From positions 1-60,712 of IMG/VR virus record IMGVR_UViG_3300032456_000003: a stretch of 60,712 nt of DNA, one strand, 5' to 3'. Origin of the DNA: a virus. Under the pieces are notes generated by a model. That model was not told where the DNA came from. It saw only the letters and a program-made list of their open reading frames with translations, and did not search any database. Positions 5,493 to 60,712 of this stretch are shown here, in pieces; the first letter of the stretch is position 1, and the number at the start of each line of letters is the position of its first letter. Made by a program: the position numbers and the translations under genes.

Positions 5493-6108
5493 CCGATACC
5501 CTCCCACGGATCTCGGCGAGGTGCCCGCGCAACTCCATCGCCTCGCGATGCAGATGCAAGTCCGCTTGCAAGCGGTTGGCGAGTTCCTGCAAATCGGTAG
5601 CTTTTCGCTCGGCGACTTCTCGCAACCGCCTTGCCTCGGTCTCTGCTACTCTCGCCTCTACCTCTGCCACTCTCGCCTTGTGCGACTGCTCGCCGAATTC
5701 CTCCGTGGTCGGATGGGCCAGCAGCGCGCGAGTCACCGGGAACGCCGCCACGAACATCGCGGAACCAGCGACTGCTGTCAGCGCGTCCCAAACGACGATG
5801 ATCGTGGGCATGTCCCAGAGATCGTGCAGGTAGTATTCCGGGTGGCAAAAAACGAGGACGTTCCAGATTCGTCTGGTGCCAGAAAGAAGCATGAAAGCGA
5901 AGAATGCAATCATCATCCATTTGGCCGGCAAATGATGCCGGCTGCGGGAGTGTGCCCAGCCGTAGCAAAGAACGATTGGGAAAAGCAAGAATGCGATAGC
6001 CACAATCGAATTTGATACCTGGCTCATGACGACGAGCCACACTGGCCACTCCGCGCCGTTTCCCGATGCAAACCAACTCGCGTCGGCAAGAAATCTTAAC
6101 TGGGTCAT
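5485..6108 (-). CDS. multi-pass membrane protein with C-terminal coiled coil (207 aa)
   Basis: Trimmed to the ATG at 6108 (MTQLRFLADAS...), which has a GGGGGAAAAA SD. Several hydrophobic helices are followed by VAEVEARVAETEARRLREVAERK. Confidence 0.5.
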   Translation of the reverse strand: MTQLRFLADASWFASGNGAEWPVWLVVMSQVSNSIVAIAFLLFPIVLCYGWAHSRSRHHLPAKWMMIAFFAFMLLSGTRRIWNVLVFCHPEYYLHDLWDMPTIIVVWDALTAVAGSAMFVAAFPVTRALLAHPTTEEFGEQSHKARVAEVEARVAETEARRLREVAERKATDLQELANRLQADLHLHREAMELRGHLAEIRGRVSDG

Positions 6109-6170
6109 TTTTCCCCCTGCGCTGGCGTGTTGTGATGCGCCAGATCCTACCCGATCCGTTCTTCCGGCTC

Positions 6171-6929
6171 TCACGCGCGGAGCCTTTTAAGCCACCCGCT
6201 CATCCGTGGATGCCGCACCACATGCTCATCCAGGAACCGCACCACGCCCACGCCGGCGGCACCTTCGAGCCGCTCGACGAACCACGGCAGCCCGCCCTTG
6301 CCAGCGGGCAAATCCGATTGCTCTGGATCGCCCAGCACGATCAGTTTCGCCCCCTCGCCCACGCGAGACAGCACCAGGAGAAGCTCCGCCCGCGTGCAAT
6401 TTTGCGCCTCATCCAGCACCACGATCTCATGTCGGAACGTGCGGCCGCGCAGATACGCGAGAGCTTGCGGCTTCAGATTTTCAGCGGGGAATTTGCCCGG
6501 CCCCTTGAGCGGAACGACGCAACCCAGAGCCTCGAAAAACGCGGCGTAGTGCGGGCCGAGTTTGTCATCGACCTCGCCAGGCAGAAAGCCGAGCCGCTGA
6601 TTGCCAGCCTCGACGGCCGGACGAATCAGCGTGATGTGGTCGGCGTATCCATCGAGAACCTCGCGCGCTGCCAGGGCCATCGCGACGACGGTTTTGCCCG
6701 CGCCCGCTGGCCCCGGCATGATGAGGATATCCACGCCGGCGAACAATCCCCATGCTTGGCTCTGCGGCTCGTTGCGAGGCCGAAACCGAAAGGTGATCGG
6801 GATGGGTGCCACGGGTGCCGTGGCGATCTCCGCTGGCTGCGGTCGCCCCTTGCGTTCCTTTTGCTTTTGCCCCTCCTGTGGGCCTCGCTTCGAGCCGCGA
6901 CGTTTGAAATTCCAGGGACGTTTCGCCAT
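6171..6929 (-). CDS. phoH: PhoH-like ATPase
   Basis: It has Walker A GPAGAGKT, LGFLPGEVDDKLGPH, YLRGRTF, Walker B VVLDEAQN and GDPEQSDL. These are the characteristic PhoH family motifs in order. Confidence 0.85.
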   Translation of the reverse strand: MAKRPWNFKRRGSKRGPQEGQKQKERKGRPQPAEIATAPVAPIPITFRFRPRNEPQSQAWGLFAGVDILIMPGPAGAGKTVVAMALAAREVLDGYADHITLIRPAVEAGNQRLGFLPGEVDDKLGPHYAAFFEALGCVVPLKGPGKFPAENLKPQALAYLRGRTFRHEIVVLDEAQNCTRAELLLVLSRVGEGAKLIVLGDPEQSDLPAGKGGLPWFVERLEGAAGVGVVRFLDEHVVRHPRMSGWLKRLRA

Positions 6930-6961
6930 GAGCGCCTCGCCTCGGTTGTTTGAGATTGGGT

Positions 6962-9900
6962 TTACGCCTTCTTCTCGGCTCGCTTCTGGTCGGCGGCTGC
7001 GAGCCGACCGCGGAGCATCTTCGGCATCGGCTTCGCGACCATCTCCACCAGCAAGACCTCGTCGAAATCCTTCGGCCGATCCTTGCCTCGCCGCTCTTCA
7101 GCGGGCTTGCGGTCGTGCGCATCCTGCTCGGTCTCGCGGTCGCGGCGTCGCGCGCCCTGCTCCGCGACCTCGGTCTTGCGGCGGGCGACTTGCGCGGCCT
7201 GGTTGGCTTCCCACTTCTCGGTCGGCTCGTAGTATTCCTCGTGGACAAACGTCCGCTGACTCTGAGGCAGCAGTGCGATATTCTCGCCGGCGAATTGCCG
7301 TTCGAGCAGTCGCGCCTTGCGGCTCTCGTTCGTCCAGCGGCGGTATCCGATGTAGACGTTTTCCTCCTTGACGACGCGCGGCATCGGATCGTCGTCGTCG
7401 TAGAGCGAGGCCGGGGCGTCGGGCGCGTGCGGCGAGATCAGCGTGACGTTGCCCGCCTCATCCCAGGCATACAACTCGCACGTCCCAGCACTGTCCTTGG
7501 CAACCAGGCCCGCCGTGTTGCTGCCGATCCCGGTTGGGTTACCCGTCGCCTGGGAGAGTACCAGGCAGGGGGTTCCGCCGCCTGTGGGTGTCGCCCCTGT
7601 GCCTAGAACAGTATGGTTGCCGCTGACACGGAATTTTGCCGCGTTCTCCAGGGTGAGCGTAACGTCCACCGTGTCGAATCCGAAGTAGCCAAGCCTGGTT
7701 GGGCCGGTCGGGTGAAAAAACTGGATGGTGCCGGTTCGCGTTGCATCGCCAGGTAGCGCGTAAATGTACCCATTGCCCGACCCGATGTAAGCCGCGACAG
7801 ATCTCGCGTATACATCGCCACTCCAAGTTGTTTCGTTGTTATCGAGCAACGGAATCGTGTTGCCCGAGACGCCCGTGTCCTTGTATGCGGCCGTGCCCAG
7901 CCCTGAAAGTTTGGAAATACTTCCCGCTTCGTCGAAGCTATAAAGCTTTGCGGTTCCGCCATCGTCCTTGACGATCAGCCCAGCCGTGTTGCTACCGATT
8001 CCGGTTGGGTTACCCGTCGCCTGGGAGAGTACCAGGCAGGGGGTTCCGCCGCCCGTGGGGGCAGCACCTGCCCCCAGGACAGTGTGGTTGCCGCTGACAC
8101 GGAATTTTGCCCCGTTCTCCAGGGTGAGCGTAACGTCCACCGTGTCGAATCCGAAGTAGCCAAGCCTGGTTGGGCCGGTCGGGTGAAAAAACTGGATGGT
8201 GCCGGTTCGCGTTGCATCGCCGGGTAGCGCGTAAATGTACCCATTGCCCGGCCCGATGTAAGCCGCGACAGATCTCGCGTATACATCGCCACTCCAAGTG
8301 GTCTCGTTGTTATCGAGCAGCGGAATCGTGTTGCCGCTGGTGCCCGTGTTCTTGATTGCCGCCGTGCCCAGCCCCATCGTCGTCCGGGCCGCCGGTGCGT
8401 CGATGTCGTCGGCGAGCGACAGGCTAAAGTCGGTGATGGTTTTGGCGACGAGACTTCCGGTCGAAGACCTCGCCGGGAAGGTGTTGACCGCGAAGGAGGT
8501 CTGACTGAATGCGTCCGCCCCGGTCCCGATAGTGAGGGTGTTCGCTGCGATGGTCAGAGCAGCGAGCGCCGCGAGCGTTGCGTCGTACGCCTGGACGTTG
8601 GTCCCGATGACTAGACCGAGGTTGGTTCGGGCGGTGGGTACACTGGCGAGGTCGCTGAGGTTGTTTGCGACAGCGAGATAGTCTCCCGCTGCGGCGGTAG
8701 CGATAGTGCCTAGGGCTGCCGCCGTCCTCAGAGCCGCCGCGTTTGCCAGTTCGAGCAGCGAGCGCCCGTAGCTCGCCGTCGTCAGGGCTGCGATGGCGGC
8801 GAGGTCCGCGTCGTACGCCTGGACGTTGGTTCCGATGACCAGACCGAGGTTGGTTCGCGCCGTGGGTACACTGGCGAGGTCGGAGAGGTTGCTGGCTATG
8901 GCTAGGTATGTACTGGCCGCGCTGGAGACTGTCAGAAATCGCCCCTCGCTGCCGACAGTGACGTAGTCGTCGGCCGAAGCGGTCGCGATGGTGCCGAGGC
9001 CGAGGGCCGCGCGTGCGGCGGAGGCGCTGGTCTGGATGCCGACAATCAACCCGCCATGATAATCGTTCCCGATGACATCCAGCCCGTCCGCCCCGTCCAG
9101 CACCCCTGTTTGGCGATTGACCCGGTACCCAGTATTGCCTTTCCGGTTATCGCCGGCAGACGTGCTAGTCAGGGTGAACCACGTCCTGTAGAAAGTCTCG
9201 CCGGCAACTGGATCGAGAGATAAGTACCAACTGCCAGACTGTTGCCCCTCAAGTGGGTACGCAGTAGCCATCACGACCGGCCGACTTTGCGCTGCCAAAG
9301 TGTCATAGCCGCCGATGAAGCCCCCGTTGGGGAACATAACTTGAAGGCATCTCACTTCTCCCACCACGTCTACGCTCGCTCCCACCGTAAGATCAACACC
9401 GACATACATGTCGTAGATAGCCTCAGCACTTACGAAGGTCTTGTGTCCGCCAAAATTCTGTGCGGCCGTCGAGACGATGCCGGCCTGGCTCGCCGTCGCA
9501 GCACCGATGTCCACGCGGACCACGCCGGCTCCCGGCTGCGACACCACGAAGCCGTCCGCCTGGTCGAACTCAATCGTGGTCGTCGCAGCGTAGGACGGTG
9601 TCCCATCCACCTCGCGGACAGTGAGAGCGCCGGCGAAGTCGAGCCGGACCACGCCCGGCGATGGTTGCGACAGGGTAAGCCCGTCCGCCTGATCGACTTC
9701 GATTGTGGTAGTCGCGGCGTAGGACGGCGAGCCATCCACCTCGCGAATGGTGAGCGAGGGCAAGGTCGTCGCATCGTCCGGGGCCACCAGCAGCGTATCC
9801 TGCGTCGTCGTCGTTGCTTCCAGCGCGCGAAAGCCGAGCTTGTCTTTGGTGAGTTGGTACGATCCGCTGGCCGTGCCCAGCACGCCGTTGATCGCAAGAT

Positions 9901-14665: not shown

Positions 14666-14674
14666 GGTCTAAAA

Positions 14675-14868
14675 TCGGTATTACCTTTTCAGAAACTCAG
14701 GGCGTTTTTGCTCTGGGATAAATTCCCGGCCCTCTAGGTGCCCGTGGAATTTATCCCAGACCAGTTTTTTCGTTTTTAGCCTACGTTTGTAGGTTTTTGC
14801 TTGGGATAAATTCGTTTGGAAAAAACGAGTTCTTCCCACGGGGCTTTTCGGTATTACCTTTTCAGAAA
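14675..14868. repeat. composite AT-rich repeat element, copy A (173-bp-spaced direct repeats, 3 GGGATAAATTC boxes)
   Basis: TCGGTATTACCTTTTCAGAAA occurs at 14675-14695 and 14848-14868. The inverted repeat CTGGGATAAATTCC/GGAATTTATCCCAG lies at 14713-14726 and 14746-14759, and a third box lies at 14803-14813. It is homologous to 47340-47528. Confidence 0.8.
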
Positions 14869-15114: not shown

Positions 15115-15162
15115 GTCAAAATCCCCGCCCCGGAATCGAACCGGGGAAGCCAGTCGGGGTGG
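15115..15162 (-). promoter_or_regulatory. tRNA T-arm/acceptor-like minihelix, copy 2
   Basis: The minus strand reads CCCCG-ACUGGCUU-CCCCGG-UUCGAUU-CCGGGG-CGGGG-AUUUUGACCGAAC. It starts about 10 nt after the stop of 15173-15328. Confidence 0.6.
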
Positions 15163-15172
15163 TTGCGCCGGG

Positions 15173-15328: not shown

Positions 15329-15370
15329 GATCGTCTCCGGTTTGCGTGTGTCGTTCTTCCTTACACCACT

Positions 15371-15399
15371 ATAATAGTATCCATCGTCCATCAAGTCAA
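15371..15399 (-). promoter_or_regulatory. early promoter P3 (TTGACT-17-TATTAT)
   Basis: The -35 is at 15394-15399 and the -10 at 15371-15376 on the minus strand. The transcript starts with the conserved leader GTGTAAGGAAGAACGAC. Confidence 0.6.
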
Positions 15400-15403
15400 G
15401 CCT

Positions 15404-15426
15404 AATTCTGGACATTGTCCAGAATT
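15404..15426. promoter_or_regulatory. palindromic operator AATTCTGGAC-att-GTCCAGAATT upstream of P3
   Basis: Perfect 10-bp arms with a 3-nt spacer. The same palindrome occurs at 16193-16215 next to the RHH gene. Confidence 0.6.
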
Positions 15427-15436
15427 TTCTACCGGG

Positions 15437-15777: not shown

Positions 15778-15827
15778 GTCGAAAATCCCCGCCCCGGAAT
15801 CGAACCGGGGGAAGCCAGTCGGGGTGG
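15778..15827 (-). promoter_or_regulatory. tRNA T-arm/acceptor-like minihelix, copy 3
   Basis: Nearly identical to copy 2. It begins directly after the stop codon (15828-15830) of 15828-16109 and is followed by AUUUUCGAC and the next SD. Confidence 0.6.
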
Positions 15828-16109: not shown

Positions 16110-16159
16110 GGTCGTCTCTCCGGTTCGCGTTTCGTTTCGTCGTTCTTCCTTACACCGTT

Positions 16160-16188
16160 ATAATAGTATACGATGCCTATCAAGTCAA
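16160..16188 (-). promoter_or_regulatory. early promoter P4 (TTGACT-17-TATTAT)
   Basis: The -35 is at 16183-16188 and the -10 at 16160-16165 on the minus strand. It is followed by the leader GTGTAAGGAAGAACGACGAAACGAAACGCGAACCGGAG. Confidence 0.6.
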
Positions 16189-16192
16189 GCCG

Positions 16193-16215
16193 AATTCTGG
16201 ACGATGTCCAGAATT
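16193..16215. promoter_or_regulatory. palindromic operator AATTCTGGAC-gat-GTCCAGAATT between P4 and the divergent RHH gene
   Basis: Perfect 10-bp arms, identical to those at 15404-15426. Confidence 0.6.
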
Positions 16216-16238
16216 TTCTACCGGGCCGCATGGAAGTC

Positions 16239-24033: not shown

Positions 24034-24149
24034 GAGCGTTCGCGCCCCTGGCCTGCCCCTCGTAGGCTGAATCTCCCTCGGTTTTCATTCCCGCCAGGCG
24101 GTCGAGGGGACCGCTTTTCAGGCCGCGAACCCTAGGCGGGTTTGACTCG

Positions 24150-37771: not shown

Positions 37772-39121
37772 TTAATCGTCCATCTTGCTGAGAACTTCCC
37801 GCAGATTGAATAGTAACGCATCTTCGAGTCCGGCTTCCGGGAAATCGCGACTGCCGTTCCATTTGATGTCCGGGTTGCGGACGCCTACGAGGTTGCCGTC
37901 TTCGTCGGCGAGCCAGTTGCCGTCCGACGTGCTAACGGCCTGGACGTAAGGCAGATACCAGAACAGGTAGTTGTTGTGCCAGGGATGGTTCCAGTAGTAG
38001 CGCAGGATCTCGTGGAGTCCGTTGCGCTTGCCGAGCCTGGCGCGGTATTCCTTGTGATCCGCTTTGACCTTGCTGTTGAATGGCCCCCAGAATTCGCTCA
38101 TGTCGAGTTCCTGGTCGGGCACGCCGAGGTGTTCGAGGGTTGCCTTGAAATCGTCCCAGGTGACGACCAGCTTCTTGCCAGCGTTCTCGCGGGCCGTGTC
38201 TTCCAGCATGCTCGTGAACTGAAACGCCACATCGAAGGTGTTGCCGCCCAGCCACTTGGGGTCCGCACATTCGGGATGCTTCGACGCGCATCCGAAGTAG
38301 GCGTCCCAGTACGGCGTGGGGAAGAAGTCGAGTCCGTAATCAGCAGTGGCCTTGTACCATTCCTTCAGATCGCGGATAAAATACCCAGGGTTCACGTTGG
38401 CTGCCGGGTAGAGTTCGTCGTGGTAGGTCTCTCGAACCTGACCGAACTGAGCCGCGCTGAAGTGAAGCCTCTCCAGCCAGACCCCTTTCGCGCCGACCGC
38501 AGCCGCCCGCTTGCAGTATTCGACCGGGGACGGCACCCACGCCTTAACGTACGGATTGCATGCCATCACGACCGGGATGCCGTGGTCAGTCAGTCGTGCG
38601 GCGAGTTCCCATCGCGACTCGATCGATTGCGCACCCGGCTCGAACCGCTTGCGAAGTTTGTCATCGAGTTGGCACAGCGACATGGCCACCACCACGCGGC
38701 CCGGTTCCAGCAGTGGCGCGTAGCGGTCGAAGTCGCTGGAGAGTACATTGCCCCGCGTCTGGATGTAGACGGGCACCTTTCGTTCCTTGCACCAGGAGAG
38801 GAACGCTTCGCTGGCCCGGTACGTTTTCTCGTCGCGCTGGAATGGATCGGTCGTGTTCGAGAAGCAGACCGGGTATCGGTTGCGCAGGAAGAAACCGATC
38901 GGGCTGTATTCGTCGTCCCACTCGCGGTCTAGCTTTCGCAGTGCGGACGCAGTGCTGTTGACCGGGTTCGGATCGCGATCGAATGCGTCGCGGTTCAGAT
39001 TGGCGAAGCAGAAGGAGCAAGATACGCTGCAATAGCCGTAGATGCTGACCTCGACCGGGAAGGGAGTTTGCGGCCAGATGCCGAAAAGCCGAACCGGGTC
39101 TTTGTTGAAATCGAACGCCAT
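37772..39121 (-). CDS. radical SAM enzyme (449 aa)
   Basis: YGYCSVSCSFCFANLN carries the CxxxCxxC cluster motif near the N-terminus. Trimmed to the ATG at 39121 (MAFDFNKDP...). Confidence 0.75.
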   Translation of the reverse strand: MAFDFNKDPVRLFGIWPQTPFPVEVSIYGYCSVSCSFCFANLNRDAFDRDPNPVNSTASALRKLDREWDDEYSPIGFFLRNRYPVCFSNTTDPFQRDEKTYRASEAFLSWCKERKVPVYIQTRGNVLSSDFDRYAPLLEPGRVVVAMSLCQLDDKLRKRFEPGAQSIESRWELAARLTDHGIPVVMACNPYVKAWVPSPVEYCKRAAAVGAKGVWLERLHFSAAQFGQVRETYHDELYPAANVNPGYFIRDLKEWYKATADYGLDFFPTPYWDAYFGCASKHPECADPKWLGGNTFDVAFQFTSMLEDTARENAGKKLVVTWDDFKATLEHLGVPDQELDMSEFWGPFNSKVKADHKEYRARLGKRNGLHEILRYYWNHPWHNNYLFWYLPYVQAVSTSDGNWLADEDGNLVGVRNPDIKWNGSRDFPEAGLEDALLFNLREVLSKMDD

Positions 39122-39131
39122 CGAGTCCCCC

Positions 39132-39782
39132 CTACTTGTTGTTCGCCGTGATCCTACCCGAATCCCGTGCCCAGAGGATACACGCGCGGGAGAGGTCGTC
39201 GTGGGCTTCCTGCGCCGTGTCGTAGCCCATCTCTGTCTTTTGCGGACCAAGGAAAAGCCACAGAAGATTTCTCACATAGCCTGACGGCTGTCCCGTTCTT
39301 TGCTCAGAACTGGGCCACCATCTGTACACGCTGCGAGTGGATTCCGCGTTTGAAAAGCGCGGCTCCTTGCCCGTCAGCCTCACCACCTCCACCGGCTGGC
39401 TCCTCATGATGGCCTGGCCATACTCTAGCCAGTAGGATTCCTCGCATCGAATTGCGTGGACGAACCCACGACGGAAAACGCATCCGAGTGGGTCGATGCT
39501 CGATAGCGATTCGCCTGCCCAGACGGATCGGAATTCATCAAGCAATTCATCTTCCCTGACCATGAGATTCATTAGCTTGACGGACTCATCACGGTTCTCA
39601 TCGAGATCGATCAAGACAGCGTCTGCCAGCGACAACTCGCACTGCACGCGAATGAGTTCGGCTCGCTTTTCCTCCCCGTGTTCCTCCAGCCAGTCGGCAT
39701 AGATCAGCCTCGGCGTGTCGTCTGCTGGATGATCGCAGATGTCCGCTACGAATGCGGCCCGCATGTCGGCATCAGTCGGCAT
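39132..39782 (-). CDS. TIGR02996 repeat-companion domain protein
   Basis: AAFVADICDHPADDTPRLIYADWLEEHGEEKRAELIRVQCEL matches the TIGR02996 signature known from Gemmata and myxobacteria. Confidence 0.7.
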   Translation of the reverse strand: MPTDADMRAAFVADICDHPADDTPRLIYADWLEEHGEEKRAELIRVQCELSLADAVLIDLDENRDESVKLMNLMVREDELLDEFRSVWAGESLSSIDPLGCVFRRGFVHAIRCEESYWLEYGQAIMRSQPVEVVRLTGKEPRFSNAESTRSVYRWWPSSEQRTGQPSGYVRNLLWLFLGPQKTEMGYDTAQEAHDDLSRACILWARDSGRITANNK

Positions 39783-45822: not shown

Positions 45823-45928
45823 AGTTGCCCCTCGCGAAAAATAATGCCCCCACCGAGGCCCAACCGTTGGCCATTTGAGGGGAGGCGTAACCCCTCTGCC
45901 TCCGTCCCCTCGGCGGGGGCAAGCCGCA

Positions 45929-46270
45929 TCAAGTCCCGAACGCCGCTGCCGCCCGCACCAGCAGATGGATCAATTCCCCCGAGCCGAGTTGCTGGGGGGT
46001 CAGCCGCAGCAAGTGCCAGCCCCGCAGGGCCAGCTCGTTGTACTTTTCCATGTCCCGCATGAACCCGCTGCCGCGAGTGTGCCGCCCGCCCGTCCAGACG
46101 CCGCCCTCGCACTCCACCGCGATCAGCTGCGCTGGCCAGGCGAAGTCAACCCGCCACAGGCGAGGACGGGCAAAGACGTACTCAGGCTCCGGAGCGGGCA
46201 GCCCGGCCTCGCATGCCGCTATCATGACCGCGACCGGGATAGCTTTTGCAGCCTTCCGTTTCGCCATCAC
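45929..46270 (-). CDS. Vsr/DUF559-like PD-(D/E)xK endonuclease
   Basis: WRVDFAWPAQLIAVECEGGVWTGGRHTRG...DMEKYNELALRGWHLLRLT matches the D...E.(D/E)G...K.N...GW.V.R pattern. Confidence 0.6.
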   Translation of the reverse strand: MMAKRKAAKAIPVAVMIAACEAGLPAPEPEYVFARPRLWRVDFAWPAQLIAVECEGGVWTGGRHTRGSGFMRDMEKYNELALRGWHLLRLTPQQLGSGELIHLLVRAAAAFGT

Positions 46271-46698: not shown

Positions 46699-47168
46699 TT
46701 CTCTTCCCCCTTGATGTCCAGCAACACCTTGAGCCGTTTGAGGAACCCCTTAACTTCGCTCTTCATACCCCCGCCCTGGGCGATCCTGGCGAGGTAATAG
46801 GCCCAACACTTCGGCGGCTCGACGATCTCGACGCATGGCTTGCCAAGTGGTGTCCGTTGCAGCACCAGCGGACCTTGCGTCGGCAGTCTCCCGGCCCCGG
46901 CTTCGCCGACGAACCATGCTCCCAGTGCGTCGTATTCCTCGTCGTCGAATAACTCGCACGCGGGCGTCCGGCCCGCGAACAGTCGGGCACACGCACTTGC
47001 TCCCGGCTGGTCCCGGATCATCTCAGCTATCTCCGCGTGCCAGCAACCCACCGCGAACCGCAGATCATCCGTCAAGCCGGCCGACTTCCTCACTATCAGA
47101 CATCCGCCGTCGACGGACACCTCGCATCCGGCCAGAAGCAACTCGCCGTAGGTCGTCGCCGCGCTCAC
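46695..47168 (-). CDS. hypothetical protein (157 aa)
   Basis: Track ORF 46695-47240 trimmed to the GTG at 47168, which overlaps the stop of the 50-codon ORF 47165-47317 (GTGA). Confidence 0.45.
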   Translation of the reverse strand: MSAATTYGELLLAGCEVSVDGGCLIVRKSAGLTDDLRFAVGCWHAEIAEMIRDQPGASACARLFAGRTPACELFDDEEYDALGAWFVGEAGAGRLPTQGPLVLQRTPLGKPCVEIVEPPKCWAYYLARIAQGGGMKSEVKGFLKRLKVLLDIKGEEK

Positions 47169-47317
47169 GGTGCCCCCTCTTCCGCCAGACGCACCATGCT
47201 GTCGCCCCCCGAGATCATCCCGAGTAGCAGTTGCCAGCATTCACTCCGGGTCGATGCTCCGCACACGGCTTTCCAGGTTCTGCTGCCCCTGGACTTGTAC
47301 CATCCGACGAAAGGCAT
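47165..47317 (-). CDS. small protein (50 aa, below track cutoff)
   Basis: MPFVGWYKSRGSRTWKAVCGASTRSECWQLLLG... has a strong AAGGAG SD 7 nt upstream. It is the first ORF after repeat element B. Confidence 0.4.
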   Translation of the reverse strand: MPFVGWYKSRGSRTWKAVCGASTRSECWQLLLGMISGGDSMVRLAEEGAP

Positions 47318-47339: not shown

Positions 47340-47528
47340 TTCGGTATTACCTTTTCTCGGAAGGCGTCTTTTTTTGCTCTGGGATAAATTCCCGGGCACC
47401 TAGGAGGGCGAGCATTTTATCCCAGAGCAGTTTTTACGTTTCTAGCCTACGTTTCTAGGTTTTTGCTTGGGATAAATTCGTTTGAAAAAAACGAGTTCTT
47501 CCCACGGGGCGTTTCGGTATTACCTTTT
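47340..47528. repeat. composite AT-rich repeat element, copy B
   Basis: TTCGGTATTACCTTTT occurs at 47340-47355 and 47513-47528, 173 bp apart. GGGATAAATTC boxes lie at 47381-47391 and 47469-47479, with an inverted box at 47416-47425. It starts 5 nt after the primase-helicase stop. Confidence 0.8.
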
Positions 47529-47532
47529 TTGT

Positions 47533-49623
47533 TCACTCCTCGAAAAGCACCGCTTTTGCCGGCTTCGTTTCGCCCGGAGTAAGGAGCCACTTCTGGCCGT
47601 TTCTGCTCTCGTCCTCGATCCCCATTTCGGCCCTGGCGTTGGTGAGAGTCCGCCTGTCGATCCCGATTTTCTCCGCCGCTGCCGTTGTTTCCGCAAGAGA
47701 CTTGTCGCCACCGGAAAGCCAGCCGGTCAGCCAGGCAGTCGCGACGTTGATCGCCGTGGCTGGCCGGCCACGGGACCGCCCTGCGGTGCCCGGCTCCGCG
47801 TCCGGTGACACGGGAGGGGCATCGTCGTAGTCGCACCCATCGCTGTGCATCGTGACGCCCAGGGCCGGCGGTTTGATCGCGTTGGACTTCGATACCCAGA
47901 TCCTGCGGCGGTTCGGCTGCCCCTCCGGGTCCGGCTCCGTCATGGTGATGACCTGACGTGCCTTCTCCACGATCCGCCGGCCCAGCACACCACCGTTTGC
48001 GTTCAGGTGCGTCAGGCAGATGATCGCGCAATCGAATTCGATTGCCAGCTTGCGGAGAGGCCGCGTCAGCGCCTCGGCCTCCTCCTGCGAGTGCATCTTC
48101 AGGCTGGTGGCCGAGCCGAGCGTGTCCACCACAAAAAACGTCGGCTTGACAATCTGCATGTAGTGACTCAGGCGTCCCAGTTGGCCATCGAGTTGCGTCC
48201 CCGCGAACGGGTCCGCTTTGAGGGCCGGCAGGTAAAACGCGGAGTCGAGTCCCCACGCCTCGACCATCGTGGCGGCCTCGGCGTGGTTGTCGTCGGCGAG
48301 CATCCAGAGCCATCGGCTGTCGCGGCCGATGGTGGCCGGGTGGAAGTCTGGCCAGTCCAGCCCCAGGCACACCCGGCGCATCAGGTCCATCGCGAACCGG
48401 GTCTTGCCGACGCCTCCGTTGGCTGCGACGATGGTGAGGACGCCTCGGGCGATCCAGTTGGGCCAGATCCATTTGACCGACGCTCCTGCCGCCTTCAAGT
48501 CGGCCAGGCGGGCAACCCCGTGGATGTCGTCGGGTAGCAGTTCTTCGTCGTCGTCCTCTTCCTCCGTGCGTGCGGCGACCGGCAGCGTCTTCTCTGGGAT
48601 CGGCTCGTTCAGCAGGTAGCCGCGCGACTTGTCGGATGGCGCTTTGCCAGCCTGTTCGATCTTGCGGCGCAAGTCCTTCTCGCTCCAGGGCGGGACGCAC
48701 GTCGCGTTCCACCCCTGGATTGCTTCCAGTGCCTGCCCGTCGTCAAGGGCGAATCCTTGCACCAGCACGCAGGCCACGCGGAAAGTGGTGTCGTGCCCGC
48801 GCTGGCCGGCGACGGCCGGCTCTGCTTTCCCGAGGTACAATTTTGCCCGCTCCAGGGCCGACTGGACGGCCGGGCGATCCGGTGTCCGTTCCTGCGCGTC
48901 GCGCAAGGCGAACCGTTCGATGGCGATTGCCAGGGCGGCAGTGTTCGCCGCCGCATCGGCTCGCGGGTCTTCGGGCATCTCCAGAACGCCGCCGATGCGA
49001 TGCGGTCGCTCGGGCGTGTCCTTGCCCTTGCGGGCTTTCGTGCCCCAGACCCGGCAGATCCTGGAGGCGTTGAAGCAGGGCGTGTCGATCTTCACGTCGG
49101 CATTGCCGACGTACTTGTTCAGGGCGATTAACAGCGAACGTACCGCCTCGCGAGAGGCTTCGTCGTTGGGCATCGTGACCGGGTAGAGCAGGTGGTAGCC
49201 GTTGCCGCTGTCGGCAATGACCGGCCGGCCGAACCCTAGAGCCGACAGTCCATTGACTACGTCGATGGCGATCTCATACGATAACGCCTTCTCTTCGTCG
49301 TCCGAACTGATTTCGGCCTGACGTAGCGGGTCGATGTCGAGCAGCACCCAATCGCGTTGGGAGATGTGCGCGTCACTGGCCGCACGTCCCTGGTCGTGGT
49401 CCTCGGTCACTGGGTTGATCGTCCAGTAGACACCCTTGAATCCTTTGCCTTCCATCTTGATCGCTTCGCGGGCCATCGCTTCCGCGTCTTCCGGCAACCG
49501 GAAGAATGCGGAACGCGCGGACCCATGAGCCGAGAGACTGCGCAGTTCGGTGAGACGCGGCCCGTCCGCGGACAGGGCCGTCAGCCATGCGACTATAGAC
49601 GTAACACGATCATCTGCCCGCAT
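47533..49623 (-). CDS. primase-polymerase (AEP) fused to a RepA/AAA_25-like helicase ATPase
   Basis: WVLLDIDP (DxD) and ADSGNGYHLLY are AEP motifs. ANGGVGKTRF is a Walker A in the C-terminal half. The ATG at 49623 has an AAAGGAG SD 8 nt upstream. Confidence 0.8.
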   Translation of the reverse strand: MRADDRVTSIVAWLTALSADGPRLTELRSLSAHGSARSAFFRLPEDAEAMAREAIKMEGKGFKGVYWTINPVTEDHDQGRAASDAHISQRDWVLLDIDPLRQAEISSDDEEKALSYEIAIDVVNGLSALGFGRPVIADSGNGYHLLYPVTMPNDEASREAVRSLLIALNKYVGNADVKIDTPCFNASRICRVWGTKARKGKDTPERPHRIGGVLEMPEDPRADAAANTAALAIAIERFALRDAQERTPDRPAVQSALERAKLYLGKAEPAVAGQRGHDTTFRVACVLVQGFALDDGQALEAIQGWNATCVPPWSEKDLRRKIEQAGKAPSDKSRGYLLNEPIPEKTLPVAARTEEEDDDEELLPDDIHGVARLADLKAAGASVKWIWPNWIARGVLTIVAANGGVGKTRFAMDLMRRVCLGLDWPDFHPATIGRDSRWLWMLADDNHAEAATMVEAWGLDSAFYLPALKADPFAGTQLDGQLGRLSHYMQIVKPTFFVVDTLGSATSLKMHSQEEAEALTRPLRKLAIEFDCAIICLTHLNANGGVLGRRIVEKARQVITMTEPDPEGQPNRRRIWVSKSNAIKPPALGVTMHSDGCDYDDAPPVSPDAEPGTAGRSRGRPATAINVATAWLTGWLSGGDKSLAETTAAAEKIGIDRRTLTNARAEMGIEDESRNGQKWLLTPGETKPAKAVLFEE

Positions 49624-49645
49624 GGCGGACGCTCCTTTCATGATG

Positions 49646-50212
49646 TCAGAACAGAATCTCTTCTTCATCATCCGGTGCCGGCTCCGGAGGCACGTTGGTC
49701 GTCCTGGCTGGTTGACGTTGCGATCCGGGCGTTGCCGGCTTGCCTGGCGCGACCTTCGACTTGCCGAGACCCCAGTTGATGTAGAGCTTGTGGAACGTTT
49801 TCTTGTCGCCCTTCTGGGTCGTTTTTTTGCCCTTGAACCGGATTCCGACCATCGCGCGGGCTTCGAGCAGCTTCATCAGTTCGGATGAAAACCTCCCCCT
49901 CCACTCGGCGGCCTCGAAGCCGAGAGTAGCCAGATCGCAGCCGAGAATGTTGACGGCAATCTGGTTGTTCAGCCAGTACGTATGCTCGATTGTGTCGCCG
50001 ACCAGGCTCGCGTCTGCCGCCGCGATGATCTTCAGCCCGACGCGGACGACAACCTGGTTGTCAGTGCCGACCTTGTCGCTTGCCGCATAAACGATCTCGA
50101 ACGTGTACGATCCGTCGGCAAGCGACTCGACATCCGGGGGGCGGTTGCCACCGCCCTCCGTCGTCGTGTAGTCCTTGTCGTATCCCCTGAGTTCCTTGCT
50201 GATGTCTGTCAC
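49646..50212 (-). CDS. putative ssDNA-binding protein (DUF669-like position, acidic SSB-type tail)
   Basis: It ends PDDEEEILF, resembling SSB C-terminal tips. It follows the Sak4-like ATPase, as in many phage recombination modules. Confidence 0.5.
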   Translation of the reverse strand: MTDISKELRGYDKDYTTTEGGGNRPPDVESLADGSYTFEIVYAASDKVGTDNQVVVRVGLKIIAAADASLVGDTIEHTYWLNNQIAVNILGCDLATLGFEAAEWRGRFSSELMKLLEARAMVGIRFKGKKTTQKGDKKTFHKLYINWGLGKSKVAPGKPATPGSQRQPARTTNVPPEPAPDDEEEILF

Positions 50213-53614: not shown

Positions 53615-54132
53615 TGCATACCTTCGTTGATCCACCGGACGAATTCGTGATCGCCGATAAAGACGCAAAGGATTTTCCCACGACTATTTGCGACCGCCCG
53701 CATCGCGAACGCGATGATCCCTGAATCGCTCGTCATGTGAGCGCCGGTCAGGACCATGACGGAATGAATTGGGGCCAGCATCAGATCCAGCATGGCCTTG
53801 ACTAGCTTCTCGTCCGCGCTGCCGGTCACGTCCTGGTTCTGCAGCTCGATCCCGAGCGGGACGTTCCACGAATTAGGCCGGATCACGAACGGCAATTCCA
53901 GGTCGCGGCCGTACTCGCACTTGCCGACAAGAACGTTCGTCCCGTAGCAGCCTCGCCCGTGAAACGTCGCCTGATCATTCGTGATGCTCGCGAGCGTGTT
54001 CGCTCTGGTGAACAGCAGCCCGACTTCCTGGAACAGTCCATTCAGCATCGCTCTGATGGCGATGCCGCTCCTCATCGCCATGCCGCCCTGGCTTGGCTTC
54101 GCCTCGCCCGGCACGTTCTCGAAACCGTTCAT
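53557..54132 (-). CDS. hypothetical protein translationally coupled to the MT-A70 methylase (possible nuclease partner)
   Basis: Trimmed to the ATG at 54132, with an ATGA overlap with the methylase stop. LGIELQNQDVTGSADEKL is faintly PD-(D/E)xK-like. The function is not established. Confidence 0.45.
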   Translation of the reverse strand: MNGFENVPGEAKPSQGGMAMRSGIAIRAMLNGLFQEVGLLFTRANTLASITNDQATFHGRGCYGTNVLVGKCEYGRDLELPFVIRPNSWNVPLGIELQNQDVTGSADEKLVKAMLDLMLAPIHSVMVLTGAHMTSDSGIIAFAMRAVANSRGKILCVFIGDHEFVRWINEGMQWPGDSQTQLGSLVNGGAS

Positions 54133-55181
54133 GGTGCCTCCTCCGTCCTGGTGAATAAATCCCGCTCCACCTCGTTTCCGAAGACGGCCCAGCCGTCCAC
54201 GGCTCTGCGTCCGAAAAGCTCCAGGTACGGGCCGGGGCTGGCCCGCTCGACCAGGTGCCGTACCCGCTCGGGCTTGGCGCTGTGCTGGCCTCGATCCTCC
54301 TCCATCCACGACCGCAGCGAGTGATCTGCGAAAGGGCAGGAGCCGCGCACGCCCAGCAGCAGGAACTCGTGGCTCACCCGCCAGTAGTTGCCCATGCCGA
54401 TCTGCGGCTTCGCCCAGATGAACATGGATCGAAACTCGAAACCCCACGCAGCCATAATCCGGGGGCAGTCGAACAGGAAGGCGTTCGTAGTCCACAGGTG
54501 CAGGTGTGCGTCATCGGCAACCAGTTTCGCAATCGGCATCGCGGCGATCTCGTCAACGCTTAGACCAACGTAGTGATCGCTGGTTGCTCCCCTTGTCCGC
54601 TGGTTGTCGTAGACCCACGGCGGGTCGGCGTATACGGTCCCGAACTTCCTCTCGTCGGCGATCAGGCCGTCAAGCGACACCAGACATTCAGCCCCGGCCG
54701 CACGCTCCCGGATGTCATTCCGCTTCTCCTGCTTGACCACGGACTTTGCCAGCCGCAACGCCCCCGCCGTGGTCAACTGCTCCCCCGATTCGCGAACCTC
54801 GCGAATGTGAGCCTCGAAGGCTTCGGCTGGTAGGGAAGCGAGCTTTTGCCACTGTGCGGACTGGTCGCGAGTGACTTCGACTTCCGAGAGTCTTAAACCT
54901 GTCGTTGCCAACGACAGGTTTCCTGATGGCCGTCCGCCCTTGTGAATCTCGCCGTTGTCTTGCATCTCAGCAATTAACACCCCGATCCGCCGTTCCGCCC
55001 TCAACTTCATCTCCGCAGCTTCGTTGCACGCCTCCACGGCCTCGCCGCTCACCTGGCGATAGTGGCGGATGGCCTCGGCCTGGTCGCGGAACTCCAGCAC
55101 GTCCTCAATGTTCTTTGCCTCGATGATCCACTGGCGGGCTTGCGAGAGTGTCGCAAGCTGCCGTTCGTGCAAGACACTCAT
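54129..55181 (-). CDS. MT-A70 family N6-adenine DNA methyltransferase
   Basis: It has the catalytic VYADPPW, then HLHLWTTN and FIWAKPQIGMGNYWR. The N-terminal helical DNA-binding extension is common in phage versions. Confidence 0.8.
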   Translation of the reverse strand: MSVLHERQLATLSQARQWIIEAKNIEDVLEFRDQAEAIRHYRQVSGEAVEACNEAAEMKLRAERRIGVLIAEMQDNGEIHKGGRPSGNLSLATTGLRLSEVEVTRDQSAQWQKLASLPAEAFEAHIREVRESGEQLTTAGALRLAKSVVKQEKRNDIRERAAGAECLVSLDGLIADERKFGTVYADPPWVYDNQRTRGATSDHYVGLSVDEIAAMPIAKLVADDAHLHLWTTNAFLFDCPRIMAAWGFEFRSMFIWAKPQIGMGNYWRVSHEFLLLGVRGSCPFADHSLRSWMEEDRGQHSAKPERVRHLVERASPGPYLELFGRRAVDGWAVFGNEVERDLFTRTEEAP

Positions 55182-55474
55182 GACATCTCCTCGAACTGAG
55201 GTACTCCCCCCGTCACCGGGGCAAGCTCGCCCTCGGCGATGCACCGACGGATTGCGTCGATGTGTTTGCACGTCCGGCCCGTGCCACGGAGCCGGATTGT
55301 GTAGTGCGGGCAGGTGCATCGCCCGCCAGGCTGCGGGGTTACCTCGTATACCTCGCCCTCGCGAACCGGCGAGAGGAGCAGGTAGCCGTAGAGGCTACCG
55401 TCCCGCTCGTCGATTGCCTGCTCCACCCCGTACTCGGCCCCGCCGATGTTGACGTAGCCGTAAACCTGAGCCAT
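55178..55474 (-). CDS. SWIM zinc-finger protein (98 aa)
   Basis: CTCPHYTIRLRGTGRTCKHI fits the CxCx(n)CxH SWIM signature. An ATGA overlap links it to the methylase gene. Confidence 0.6.
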   Translation of the reverse strand: MAQVYGYVNIGGAEYGVEQAIDERDGSLYGYLLLSPVREGEVYEVTPQPGGRCTCPHYTIRLRGTGRTCKHIDAIRRCIAEGELAPVTGGVPQFEEMS

Positions 55475-55942: not shown

Positions 55943-55983
55943 GACTGACCTCACCTTTGCGACTCGTTTCACCTTGCACTATC

Positions 55984-56011
55984 ACTATACCACAGTGTAT
56001 GGTATAGTCAA
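55984..56011 (-). promoter_or_regulatory. promoter TTGACT-16-TATAGT overlapped by the palindrome CTATACCA-n7-TGGTATAG
   Basis: The -35 is at 56006-56011 and the -10 at 55984-55989 on the minus strand. A perfect 8-bp inverted repeat spans 55985-56007. The region is divergent to the RHH-like gene. Confidence 0.55.
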
Positions 56012-56105
56012 GTAGAATCCTAGATAATCGTCGATTGTCATTCGTCTGCAAGGACTACGGGTATAGAATGGAATGTCAAGTTGCCCGTCATACGAGAGGC
56101 TTCAA

Positions 56106-59321: not shown

Positions 59322-59375
59322 GTTCACAATCCCGCCGCCGGCATCGAGCCGGCTCGCATCCACTGCGGCGGGTGG
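59322..59375 (-). promoter_or_regulatory. tRNA T-arm/acceptor-like minihelix, copy 4 (divergent loop)
   Basis: The minus strand reads CCCGCC-GCAGUGGAUGCGA-GCCGG-CUCGAUG-CCGGC-GGCGGG-AUUGUGAAC. It begins about 5 nt after the stop of 59380-59823. Confidence 0.5.
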
Positions 59376-59851: not shown

Positions 59852-59906
59852 GTCACAATCCCGCCCCCGGAGTCGAACCGGGGAAGCCGCCTATCGGCCG
59901 GGGTGG
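59852..59906 (-). promoter_or_regulatory. tRNA T-arm/acceptor-like minihelix, copy 5 (with extra 4-bp arm)
   Basis: The minus strand reads ACCCCG-GCCG-AUAGG-CGGC-UU-CCCCGG-UUCGACU-CCGGGG-GCGGG-AUUGUGAC. It begins about 4 nt after the stop of 59910-60194. Confidence 0.55.
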
Positions 59907-60194: not shown

Positions 60195-60238
60195 GGTCGT
60201 CTCTCCGGTTTGCGTGTGTCGTTCTTCCTTACACCTTT

Positions 60239-60291
60239 AATATACGTCGCATGACATTGGATGTCAATGTCATTCGACGGATTATTTAGGA
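60239..60291 (-). promoter_or_regulatory. early promoter P1 (TTGACA-17-TATATT) with palindrome and 28-nt block shared with P2
   Basis: The -35 is at 60262-60267 and the -10 at 60239-60244 on the minus strand. ATGACATTG-gatgt-CAATGTCAT (60251-60273) overlaps the -35. The block 60264-60291 equals 901-928. Confidence 0.6.
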
Positions 60292-60546
60292 AAGCTTTCT
60301 TCGGCGGATTTCCTGGTCCACGGCGAGCATCGCATCGGTCGGAACCCCCCGACGGTCGGCGAGCCACTGATCCACAGTCGTCTTGCGCACGCCGCAAATT
60401 GCGGCGAGGGTAGCTCGGTCGTACTCGAGTAGGGCCATCGCGGCCCGAAGCCCTGCGATGTCCTCGGTTGGTTCTCCATCGACGATAAAGACCGGCCGGC
60501 CAGCAATGCTGGCCGGGTGGTCTACGGTTGCTTCGATCTTCGGCAT
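60286..60546 (-). CDS. XRE/Cro-like HTH DNA-binding protein (86 aa), last gene of operon P2
   Basis: Trimmed to the ATG at 60546 (MPKIEATVD...), which has a GGAGAAAG SD. ATLAAICGVRKTTVDQWLADRRGVP is a helix-turn-helix. Confidence 0.6.
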   Translation of the reverse strand: MPKIEATVDHPASIAGRPVFIVDGEPTEDIAGLRAAMALLEYDRATLAAICGVRKTTVDQWLADRRGVPTDAMLAVDQEIRRRKLS

Positions 60547-60563: not shown

Positions 60564-60596
60564 GTCGGGCGACGACTAGATTGTACGTCGCCCGAC
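60564..60596 (-). promoter_or_regulatory. 11-bp perfect hairpin immediately 5' of the SD of the HTH gene
   Basis: GTCGGGCGACG, an 11-nt loop, then CGTCGCCCGAC. The 3' arm coincides with position 1 of the contig. Confidence 0.45.
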
Positions 60597-60712
60597 GAAC
60601 GCTGGCAAGGTAGATCACCGACCGCCCTTCTCATCCTCCGAGTTGCGGGTGGACTCGATCCGCCCGTCCATCATGGCGTCCCACGCACCCCTTGCGCGGG
60701 TCACCACGGCAT
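60586..60712. repeat. terminal overlap identical to 1-127
   Basis: Verbatim repeat of the first 127 nt. Confidence 0.9.

Follow-up and report, generated by a model that had tools for sequence, protein, structure and literature searches.

A duplicated hairpin-and-iteron element beside a phage primase-helicase gene differs between copies by an inverted loop and may be an origin-type site

Two copies of an intergenic element

The DNA considered here is a stretch of 60,712 nucleotides from a virus (IMG/VR record IMGVR_UViG_3300032456_000003, positions 1 to 60,712), hereafter termed the window. Directly 3ʹ of its primase-helicase gene lies a noncoding element of 189 bp, copy B, and a second copy of this element, copy A, is located in the tail-gene region. 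The two copies are collinear, lie on the same strand and are 90.5% identical over 158 nt. Each carries two hairpins, an AT-rich block and direct repeats termed iterons, all enclosed by boundary repeats; the loop of the larger hairpin is inverted in one copy relative to the other. The analysis supports a fixed mutational inversion of this loop, and copy B may serve as an origin-type site bound by the primase-helicase. The genes and element boundaries at the two loci are listed below (ORF, open reading frame).

47165-47317, minus strand: 50-codon ORF downstream of copy B, with the Shine-Dalgarno sequence AAGGAG 6 nt before its ATG
47340-47528: element copy B, 189 bp, 43.9% GC, between the primase-helicase stop and the next ORF
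47340-47355, plus strand: left boundary repeat of copy B, the 16-mer TTCGGTATTACCTTTT, which holds the 9-bp near-palindrome GGTATTACC
47513-47528, plus strand: right boundary repeat of copy B, TTCGGTATTACCTTTT, 173 bp from the first
47533-49671, minus strand: primase-helicase gene, 712 aa, with archaeo-eukaryotic primase (AEP) primase-polymerase (prim-pol) motifs, AAA_25 and a predicted C-terminal winged helix
14674-14862: element copy A, 189 bp, 43.4% GC, oriented as copy B, in a variable small-gene segment of the tail region
14674-14689 (one mismatch) and 14847-14862: the 16-mer boundary repeat TTCGGTATTACCTTTT in copy A
14675-14695 and 14848-14868, plus strand: the boundary repeat of copy A in its 21-nt form, TCGGTATTACCTTTTCAGAAA (16 nt in copy B)

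The features that the original prediction described at this locus are all present in the sequence. Copy B abuts the primase-helicase gene, its right end (47528) and the stop codon (47533-47535, a minus-strand TGA) being 4 nt apart, and the 50-codon ORF on its other side is strongly Shine-Dalgarno-led, as had been claimed. The final GTGA of this ORF takes in the GTG with which the next ORF starts, an arrangement of translational coupling. The spacing of the outer repeats is likewise the same in both copies: each is bounded by TCGGTATTACCTTTT repeats 173 bp apart, and the similarity between A and B ends exactly at these direct repeats. The 16-mer occurs four times in the window and nowhere beyond these, against 0.01 occurrences expected by chance, and the motif GGTAWTACC also occurs four times, always within the elements (0.04 expected).

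Since the terminal 127 nt of the window are identical (1-127 and 60586-60712, 100%), the window is a circular or terminally redundant assembly with a genome unit of ~60,585 bp. Copies A and B are 32.7 kb apart, so that the arcs of the 60.6-kb circle between them measure 32.7 and 27.9 kb.

Internal anatomy of the element

The features within the element are given below; IR denotes an inverted repeat.

47371-47391, plus strand: iteron 1, TTTTTGCTCTGGGATAAATTC (21 nt), which is also the left arm of IR-1
47375-47429: hairpin IR-1 of copy B, with 14-nt arms at 47375-47388 and 47416-47429 (100% complementary) and a 27-nt interior
47393-47411: loop core of IR-1 in copy B, CGGGCACCTAGGAGGGCGA, 19 nt, GC-rich, with a central CTAG; inverted relative to copy A
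47436-47461, plus strand: tandem 13-mers ACGTTTCTAGCCT and ACGTTTCTAGGTT, AT-rich, between the hairpins; a candidate DNA-unwinding region
47460-47479, plus strand: iteron 2, TTTTTGCTTGGGATAAATTC, a repeat of iteron 1
47469-47503: hairpin IR-2 of copy B, formed by GGGATAAATTCGTTT and the degenerate inverted iteron AAACGAGTTCTTCCC, with a loop of 5 nt
14709-14763: hairpin IR-1 of copy A, with 18-nt arms at 14709-14726 and 14746-14763 (94% complementary)
14727-14745: loop of IR-1 in copy A, CGGCCCTCTAGGTGCCCGT, 19 nt

On the plus strand, copy B runs from its left boundary repeat through a poorly conserved stretch of 13 nt (47356-47368) and a run of seven T residues (47369-47375) into iteron 1 and IR-1. 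The AT-rich stretch with the tandem 13-mers, iteron 2, IR-2 and the short GC-rich string TCCCACGGGGCG follow and lead to the second boundary repeat. The iterons form an internal direct repeat of 21-22 nt that is 95% identical, and their GGGATAAATTC cores start at 47381 and 47469, 88 bp apart. With the two direct 21-nt iterons and their two inverted partial partners, each copy holds four GGGATAAATTC-type motifs. From their sequence, the inverted pairs are able to form extruded hairpins or a cruciform, with a GC-rich spacer of 19-27 nt in IR-1 and one of 5 nt in IR-2. Both hairpins are predicted in both copies, with single-strand DNA fold z-scores of -3.4 (B) and -5.9 (A).

The 39-nt stretch between the hairpins is T-rich and contains both 13-mers, which in copy B share the form ACGTTTCTAG(CCT/GTT). 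IR-1 is better formed in copy A, with its longer arms, and the tandem 13-mers in copy B. The arm motif GGGATAAA occurs six times and is confined to the elements (0.71 expected). At 43-44% GC against 62% for the window, the elements are among the lowest-GC 150-bp windows of the genome.

An inverted loop between the copies

The original prediction held that the loop between the GGGATAAA/TTTATCCC arms aligns better flipped than direct. The loop strings on which this claim was based are correct, as is the 11-nt identical run CGGGCACCTAG shared by the flipped A loop and B, and a pairwise alignment check scores the flipped orientation higher. Aligned directly, the 19-mer loops have 12/19 identities and a score of 5; flipped, they have 16 identities with one indel pair and a score of 10. 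Over the whole 27-nt interior the scores are 14 flipped and 9 direct. In a control in which A received nine random substitutions, the flipped score was attained in 1 of 20,000 trials (P ~5e-5). Furthermore, BLAST aligns the entire A hairpin to B in reverse complement, at 88.7% over 53 nt. The direct alignment is not poor because the loop is partly self-complementary around its central CTAG, A scoring 10 against its own reverse complement.

After the flip, the interiors still differ at several positions and by indels, and one arm of B has decayed (GGAATTT to GCATTTT); these residual differences therefore point to an old, fixed event and not to ongoing switching. Which copy changed is weakly suggested by a related phage contig of 61 kb, L122 (ENA ERZ25038328 NODE_101). 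The best alignment of its corresponding hairpin interior is to A in gene orientation, with a score of 14; the two orientations of B score 6 and 8, and B may therefore be the flipped copy.

Two kinds of inversion had been proposed for the loop, the footprint of a hairpin-mediated event and a small invertible segment. The first is supported as a past mutational event. The second, a programmed micro-segment acting as a phase-variable switch whose orientations would be different functional states at each locus, is extremely improbable, although a loop flipped between otherwise collinear copies and flanked by inverted repeats of 14-18 nt is the pattern that suggests it. A segment of 19-27 bp is too short for such a switch, and all known recombinase-driven invertible segments are far longer. 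No invertase, integrase or other recombinase domain, and no transposase or reverse transcriptase domain, was found in the ~50 of ~75 window ORFs scanned with Pfam, many of whose proteins have no Pfam match at all, which leaves room for a novel enzyme. The substitutions and indels accumulated since the flip, together with the decayed arm, also speak for fixation, and the single consensus assembly has one orientation per locus.

A fixed mutational inversion of the inverted-repeat spacer is thus the supported account, and template switching is a plausible origin for it. Polymerase template switching between short inverted repeats is a cause of spacer inversion (PMC8604942), and it can also create and maintain hairpins (PMC8794818). 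As in those cases (PMC8604942, PMC8794818), the spacer is reverse-complemented, the flanks are collinear and the change looks like a cluster of substitutions. The described events come mostly from eukaryotic genomes and RNA genes, whereas the present one lies between two paralogous copies in one phage genome, so that the flip could also have arisen by recombination of the copies with each other in inverted register. The inversion would be a neutral footprint, left when the spacer was flipped, probably in B, by template switching or by recombination between the IR-1 arms.

Hairpin clusters beside homologous genes

Homologues of the primase-helicase are 51% identical in L122, 38% identical in the phage contigs L124, L125 and L126, and roughly 33-38% identical in several other phage contigs. 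In L122, a 214-bp intergenic region lies directly 3ʹ of the primase-helicase gene (fold z = -9.7). It contains a perfect 38-bp palindrome made up of GCTGTACAAGGCTTGTACA and TGTACAAGCCTTGTACAGC, the string AGCCTAGAAAAC and a hairpin with TGTACATAATTC arms around CCACGGCCCTAGGGGGCCGG. Read in gene orientation, the window element has the L122 order: a small-loop palindrome (IR-2), CCTAGAAACG and a large-loop hairpin centred on CCTAG. In L124, L125 and L126, two hairpins with ~20-bp arms built from TGTACACTTGTACGG follow the stop codon (fold z = -5.5). CCTAG stands at the loop centre in both the L122 hairpin and the first L124 hairpin.

The arms in L122 and the L124-type contigs are TGTAC-N3-TGTAC motifs, which are absent from the window. 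Within the relatives' loci examined, these motifs cluster almost exclusively just after the primase-helicase gene, and the L124 19-mer is found at one locus only on its 51.9-kb contig. The L122 motif was searched for in IMG/VR and not found, and a match in L167 was due to chance. Synteny is conserved upstream (AAA_24, orf188 and the primase-helicase), and the genes downstream of the hairpins are unrelated. Judged by this comparison, three lineages have a hairpin cluster that travels with this replication module, and its arm sequences change from one lineage to the next.

Just upstream of the replication module, L122 also carries a 600-aa gene with a Cas12f1-like_TNB (TnpB-type) domain followed by seven repeats (5572-8061). 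The repeats are ~37-49 nt long with the core GTGACAATGCTTATCCAGTAGCTACCAAGACTGGAAC, are spaced by 49-130 nt (mostly 73-77) and look like a CRISPR-like array.

A possible origin and its candidate initiator

The primase-helicase has the AEP motifs DxD and SGNGxH and a helicase domain assigned to AAA_25 by Pfam, which is RepA/DnaB-like; no Prim-Pol match was obtained from Pfam at E <=0.01. Its C-terminal ~60 residues are modelled as a three-helix winged helix (predicted local distance difference test score, pLDDT, ~90). All best Foldseek matches to this C-terminal domain are winged-helix DNA binders, including PadR, ArsR, Z-alpha, the N-terminal domain of ArgR and ORC. The putative recognition helix reads LTNAR in the window protein and LY[KR]AR in proteins of the TGTAC-type phages, residue differences that could weakly fit a changed DNA specificity. 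The primase-helicase is a candidate initiator for the iterons.

Together with the position of copy B, these features are consistent with an origin-type initiator-binding site at B, and with A as a secondary copy that either resembles oriR of phage SPP1 or has no function. This combined reading is the best supported of those considered and is held at somewhat less than an even chance. The primase-helicase would bind the iterons through its C-terminal winged helix, oligomerise there, melt the AT-rich block and prime DNA synthesis. Copy A would have been inserted later into a plastic small-gene ('moron') segment of the tail region, where it would be a second initiator-binding site, as SPP1 oriR is, or would have no role. 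The original suggestion of an origin-type element thereby gains indirect support from the hairpin clusters after homologous genes, the iterons, the AT-rich 13-mers, the winged helix and the precedents described below. Its argument from placement next to a replication gene stands for B and fails for A, which lies among tail genes. As at iteron origins, an AT-rich region adjoins the repeats; a cis element directly downstream of the replication gene is present for copy B, L122 and L124/126 and absent for copy A.

A close precedent is plasmid pRN1, whose origin, a stem-loop, lies downstream of a gene that encodes a prim-pol/helicase/winged-helix protein (PMC4234260). Bordetella phage BIP-1 has a similar stem-loop 3ʹ of its replication gene, and assembly of such proteins at stem-loops has been proposed (PMC4234260). 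The window shares with pRN1 (ORF904) and BIP-1/BPP-1 a cis element directly downstream of a multidomain replication gene, the product of which in the window carries AEP prim-pol motifs, a helicase domain and a predicted C-terminal winged helix; in each, a long stem-loop dominates and its position, not its sequence, is conserved among relatives (PMC4234260). However, the window hairpins are shorter, with arms of 14-18 bp against a 100-nt stem-loop of the pRN1/BIP-1 type. Unlike in those systems, the hairpins are joined by direct iterons and tandem 13-mers, and a second copy lies 32.7 kb away.

A second copy is a feature of phage SPP1, which has two similar origin sequences, oriL in a replication gene and oriR in the late region (PMC6316719). 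The oriR segment carries moron genes bracketed by transcription signals, and initiator binding there may stall forks (PMC6316719). SPP1 resembles the window in having two similar sequences of repeats and AT-rich DNA, one at the replication genes and the other in the late structural region, within a segment of small moron genes bracketed by transcription signals (PMC6316719). It differs in that oriL lies inside the initiator gene, and gp38 is a separate origin-binding protein that works with its own loader and a DnaB-type helicase. No flipped-spacer hairpin has been described for SPP1, and there is no sequence similarity.

Satellite phage P4 needs a second, distant cis site that bears repeats (crr). 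Its alpha primase-helicase, which has a C-terminal winged helix, binds repeats at the origin (PMC4234260), although it is built from a Toprim-type primase and an SF3 (superfamily 3) helicase. In plasmid RSF1010, the iteron origin oriV exposes the hairpins ssiA and ssiB, which the prim-pol-type primase RepB' uses along with the RepA helicase, the model protein for the helicase type in the window (PMC4234260). In RSF1010, however, these functions are split over three proteins, and the ssi hairpins are both part of a single origin, one on each strand, whereas in the window an opposite-strand relation exists only between the two distant copies.

By analogy with ssi hairpins, the asymmetric GC-rich loop of IR-1 could be a strand-specific priming or loading signal of the prim-pol helicase, and A and B would then be unidirectional origins on opposite strands. 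Because the loop is flipped between A and B, the two would fire on opposite strands from near-opposite points of the circle, and the direction of replication would depend on how a 19-nt hairpin loop is oriented. This idea is highly doubtful; in a weaker form of it, the loop would invert actively.

Several observations weigh against an origin at B. Each copy has only two direct and two inverted iterons, and classical iteron origins typically have four to six repeats. A DnaA box was sought and rejected, the best candidate, TTATCCCAG, matching the consensus at 6/9 positions. The helicase of pRN1 belongs to SF3 and that of the window to AAA_25, and the Foldseek matches of the winged helix have weak E-values (at least 0.07, with probabilities of ~0.9-1.0). 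Among the more distant homologues, L127, L128, L168 and L170 have no intergenic hairpin cluster after the gene, L128 carrying a 23-bp perfect TGTAC palindrome only two genes upstream. A partial TGTAC-type site, CGTACAGACGCTGTACA, is also present at the cut edge of the L122 locus (1-20; record position ~36539), ~10 kb upstream of the primase-helicase, and the motif of the relatives may therefore be the operator of a regulator and not an initiator site. GC skew is uninformative for origin placement because nearly all genes lie on one strand. Finally, the sharp direct-repeat boundaries of 16-21 nt look like those of an insertion and are left unexplained by origin function.

Locus A and the boundaries of the element

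Copy A lies within a segment of ~2.9 kb between conserved tail genes, together with small ORFs, two promoter-operator cassettes and two terminators. Two relatives, L164 (Logan SRR31221252) and L174, whose tail proteins are 67% and 50% identical, have other content at this locus and lack the element, for which reason copy A looks like a secondary acquisition. The 21-nt repeat of A takes in TTTCTGA, with which the upstream gene ends (last codon and stop). This gene end is native, as L164 has ...CCGTTCTGA there without the element; the duplicate at the far end of A was therefore made in situ, in the manner of a target-site duplication.

This in-situ duplication is the principal support for a second account. 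The element would be a small cassette, non-autonomous and either mobile or duplicated, that inserts into or duplicates a specific target of ~15 nt directly following stop codons (AAAAGGTAATACCGA on the gene strand); it would have no role in replication, and its place after the primase-helicase would be incidental. The exact end of A/B similarity at the boundary repeats fits such a cassette, as does the variability of locus A, and with the element and one repeat taken out the genes would meet at plausible tight junctions. Where the window has copy A, moreover, L164 carries a 174-aa gene (205-812) between 16-nt direct repeats, TGACCCCTGACACCAC, that include stop codons, with a GC-rich hairpin after each repeat; in both phages the locus holds a repeat-bounded cassette of this style. 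However, there are only two copies, these have no terminal inverted repeats, and none of the Pfam-scanned ORFs encodes a transposase or recombinase. The 15-nt core common to both loci would have had to be there beforehand, and no empty copy is present anywhere in the genome.

Searches of IMG/VR, a metagenome collection and GTDB genomes with element-specific patterns found no related copies. Matches to the 15-mer boundary repeat in IMG/VR were single and due to chance, a search with an 18-mer iteron pattern gave three chance matches, and the pattern CTGGGATAAA-N22-32-TTTATCCCAG matched 0 loci in IMG/VR, 29 in the metagenomes and 5 in GTDB, none of them related by BLAST. A cassette would also leave the analogous hairpin clusters at the B position in relatives unexplained. 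As an account that replaces replication function it is rather unlikely; the two readings are compatible, as origins can move as cassettes.

Known classes of repeat-bearing element were rejected for the two copies. They do not resemble a miniature inverted-repeat transposable element (MITE) or other small transposon, as the inverted repeats are internal and the flanking repeats are direct, 16-21 nt long and built on the same 15-nt core at both loci. A host-derived MITE was dismissed because the hairpin pattern gave no copies in GTDB genomes. No R''/R' core sites of an integron attC (RYYYAAC ... GTTRRRY) are visible by eye. Template and variable repeats of a diversity-generating retroelement were set aside because the copies are noncoding and no reverse transcriptase was found in the scanned ORFs.

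Transcription signals and repeated cassettes

A third account treats the element as a transcription or RNA boundary module: an operator cluster for a phage regulator, perhaps combined with a terminator of antisense (plus-strand) transcripts, or a processing or stabilising hairpin of the RNase III type in the polycistronic minus-strand mRNA. Both copies lie between genes at the edges of conserved modules, in a genome rich in repeated intergenic cassettes, which include four promoter-operator cassettes and four terminators resembling tRNA T-arms. T-runs (AGTTTTT) come after IR-1 on the plus strand, and A has one weak site flagged as terminator-like. The near-palindrome GGTATTACC is typical of sites for dimeric helix-turn-helix proteins, and L122 has a further TGTAC site in another intergenic region. 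However, a sigma-70-type promoter or a coding-strand terminator was found in neither copy, the hairpins on the minus strand being followed by A-runs, and no nearby plus-strand genes need termination. A search of Rfam 15, even at E = 10, gave only sub-threshold chance matches to eukaryotic hairpin models of small nucleolar RNAs and microRNAs. The extra unpaired direct 21-nt arm and the tolerated flip of the loop fit DNA-protein recognition better than RNA function, and the phage's own terminators and promoters are of other, recognisable types. A boundary module is judged unlikely. A sigma-54 promoter within the loop was rejected by eye: the GGCAC-N-GC spacing exists only on the minus strand of A, and the -12 TTGC is missing.

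The promoter and terminator cassettes of the window read on the minus strand. Four promoter-like cassettes (856-930, 15350-15436, 16139-16225 and 60218-60292) look like operator-controlled sigma-70 promoters of small transcription units; the one at 15350-15436 has the palindrome AATTCTGGACAATGTCCAGAATT, TTGACT-17 nt-TATTAT and a conserved 5ʹ leader, GTGTAAGGAAGAACGAC...GGAGAGACGACCATG. Four terminator-like hairpins that mimic tRNA T-arms (CCCCGGTTCGATTCCGGGG then CGGGGATTTT) are located at 15118-15163, 15782-15827, 59324-59352 and 59855-59900. A further low-GC intergenic region at 55960-56060 (minus strand) contains TTGACT-N17-TATAGT overlapped by the palindrome ACTATACCA...TGGTATAGT and is probably an early promoter with an operator.

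Genome context

Nearly every ORF of the window lies on the minus strand. In gene orientation, the early and replication genes (~60 to 40 kb) are followed by the terminase and portal genes, a protease gene, the major capsid gene and the tail genes. From its sequence, the window is a phage-like genome without a close relative in the collections searched. No DNA match was obtained by blastn and megablast against GenBank phages, tblastn matches to phages are all <=35% identical, and a protein search for related loci in IMG/VR found none. Independent assemblies were also sought by protein: P0121 led to the same contig again, and P0001 and one window ORF gave no record. The sole other record, L163 (JGI 3300009084 Ga0105046_10000380), is the same contig as the window.

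The packaging region contains a 492-aa radical-SAM-like protein (37772-39250, minus strand), with a ParB_N-domain ORF and a terminase-like ORF downstream. A pac/cos or parS site was rejected for the element because the terminase region is far off and the ParB_N protein adjoins the terminase. In the early region, an adenine methyltransferase of the MT-A70 family is encoded at 54129-55319 (minus strand). An Rfam int-alpA RNA motif (24075-24142, minus strand), which scores 43.1 bits where the gathering score is 35.8, closely precedes the major capsid gene (24033-23068), and no integrase or alpA gene adjoins it. ARAGORN calls a tRNA-Ile(GAT) at 45869-45968 (minus strand) that is unusually long (100 nt, anticodon at position 39) and overlaps an ORF (45929-46270); it may hold an insertion or be a false call.

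Implications

None of these findings overturns current understanding. The flipped loop is a clean example of spacer inversion within a single genome and illustrates how such an event mimics a cluster of point mutations. If the origin reading of copy B is right, the element would be another example, from an uncultivated phage lineage, of a little-studied type of origin, a hairpin-and-iteron site 3ʹ of a fused prim-pol/helicase/winged-helix gene. Arm motif and initiator appear to change together across lineages (GGGATAAATTC in the window, TGTAC-type in relatives), which may provide a natural series of specificity swaps for studies of DNA recognition by such initiators. Copy A, placed in the late region as SPP1 oriR is, would additionally provide a test case for the proposal that such sites arrest forks or act as second origins.

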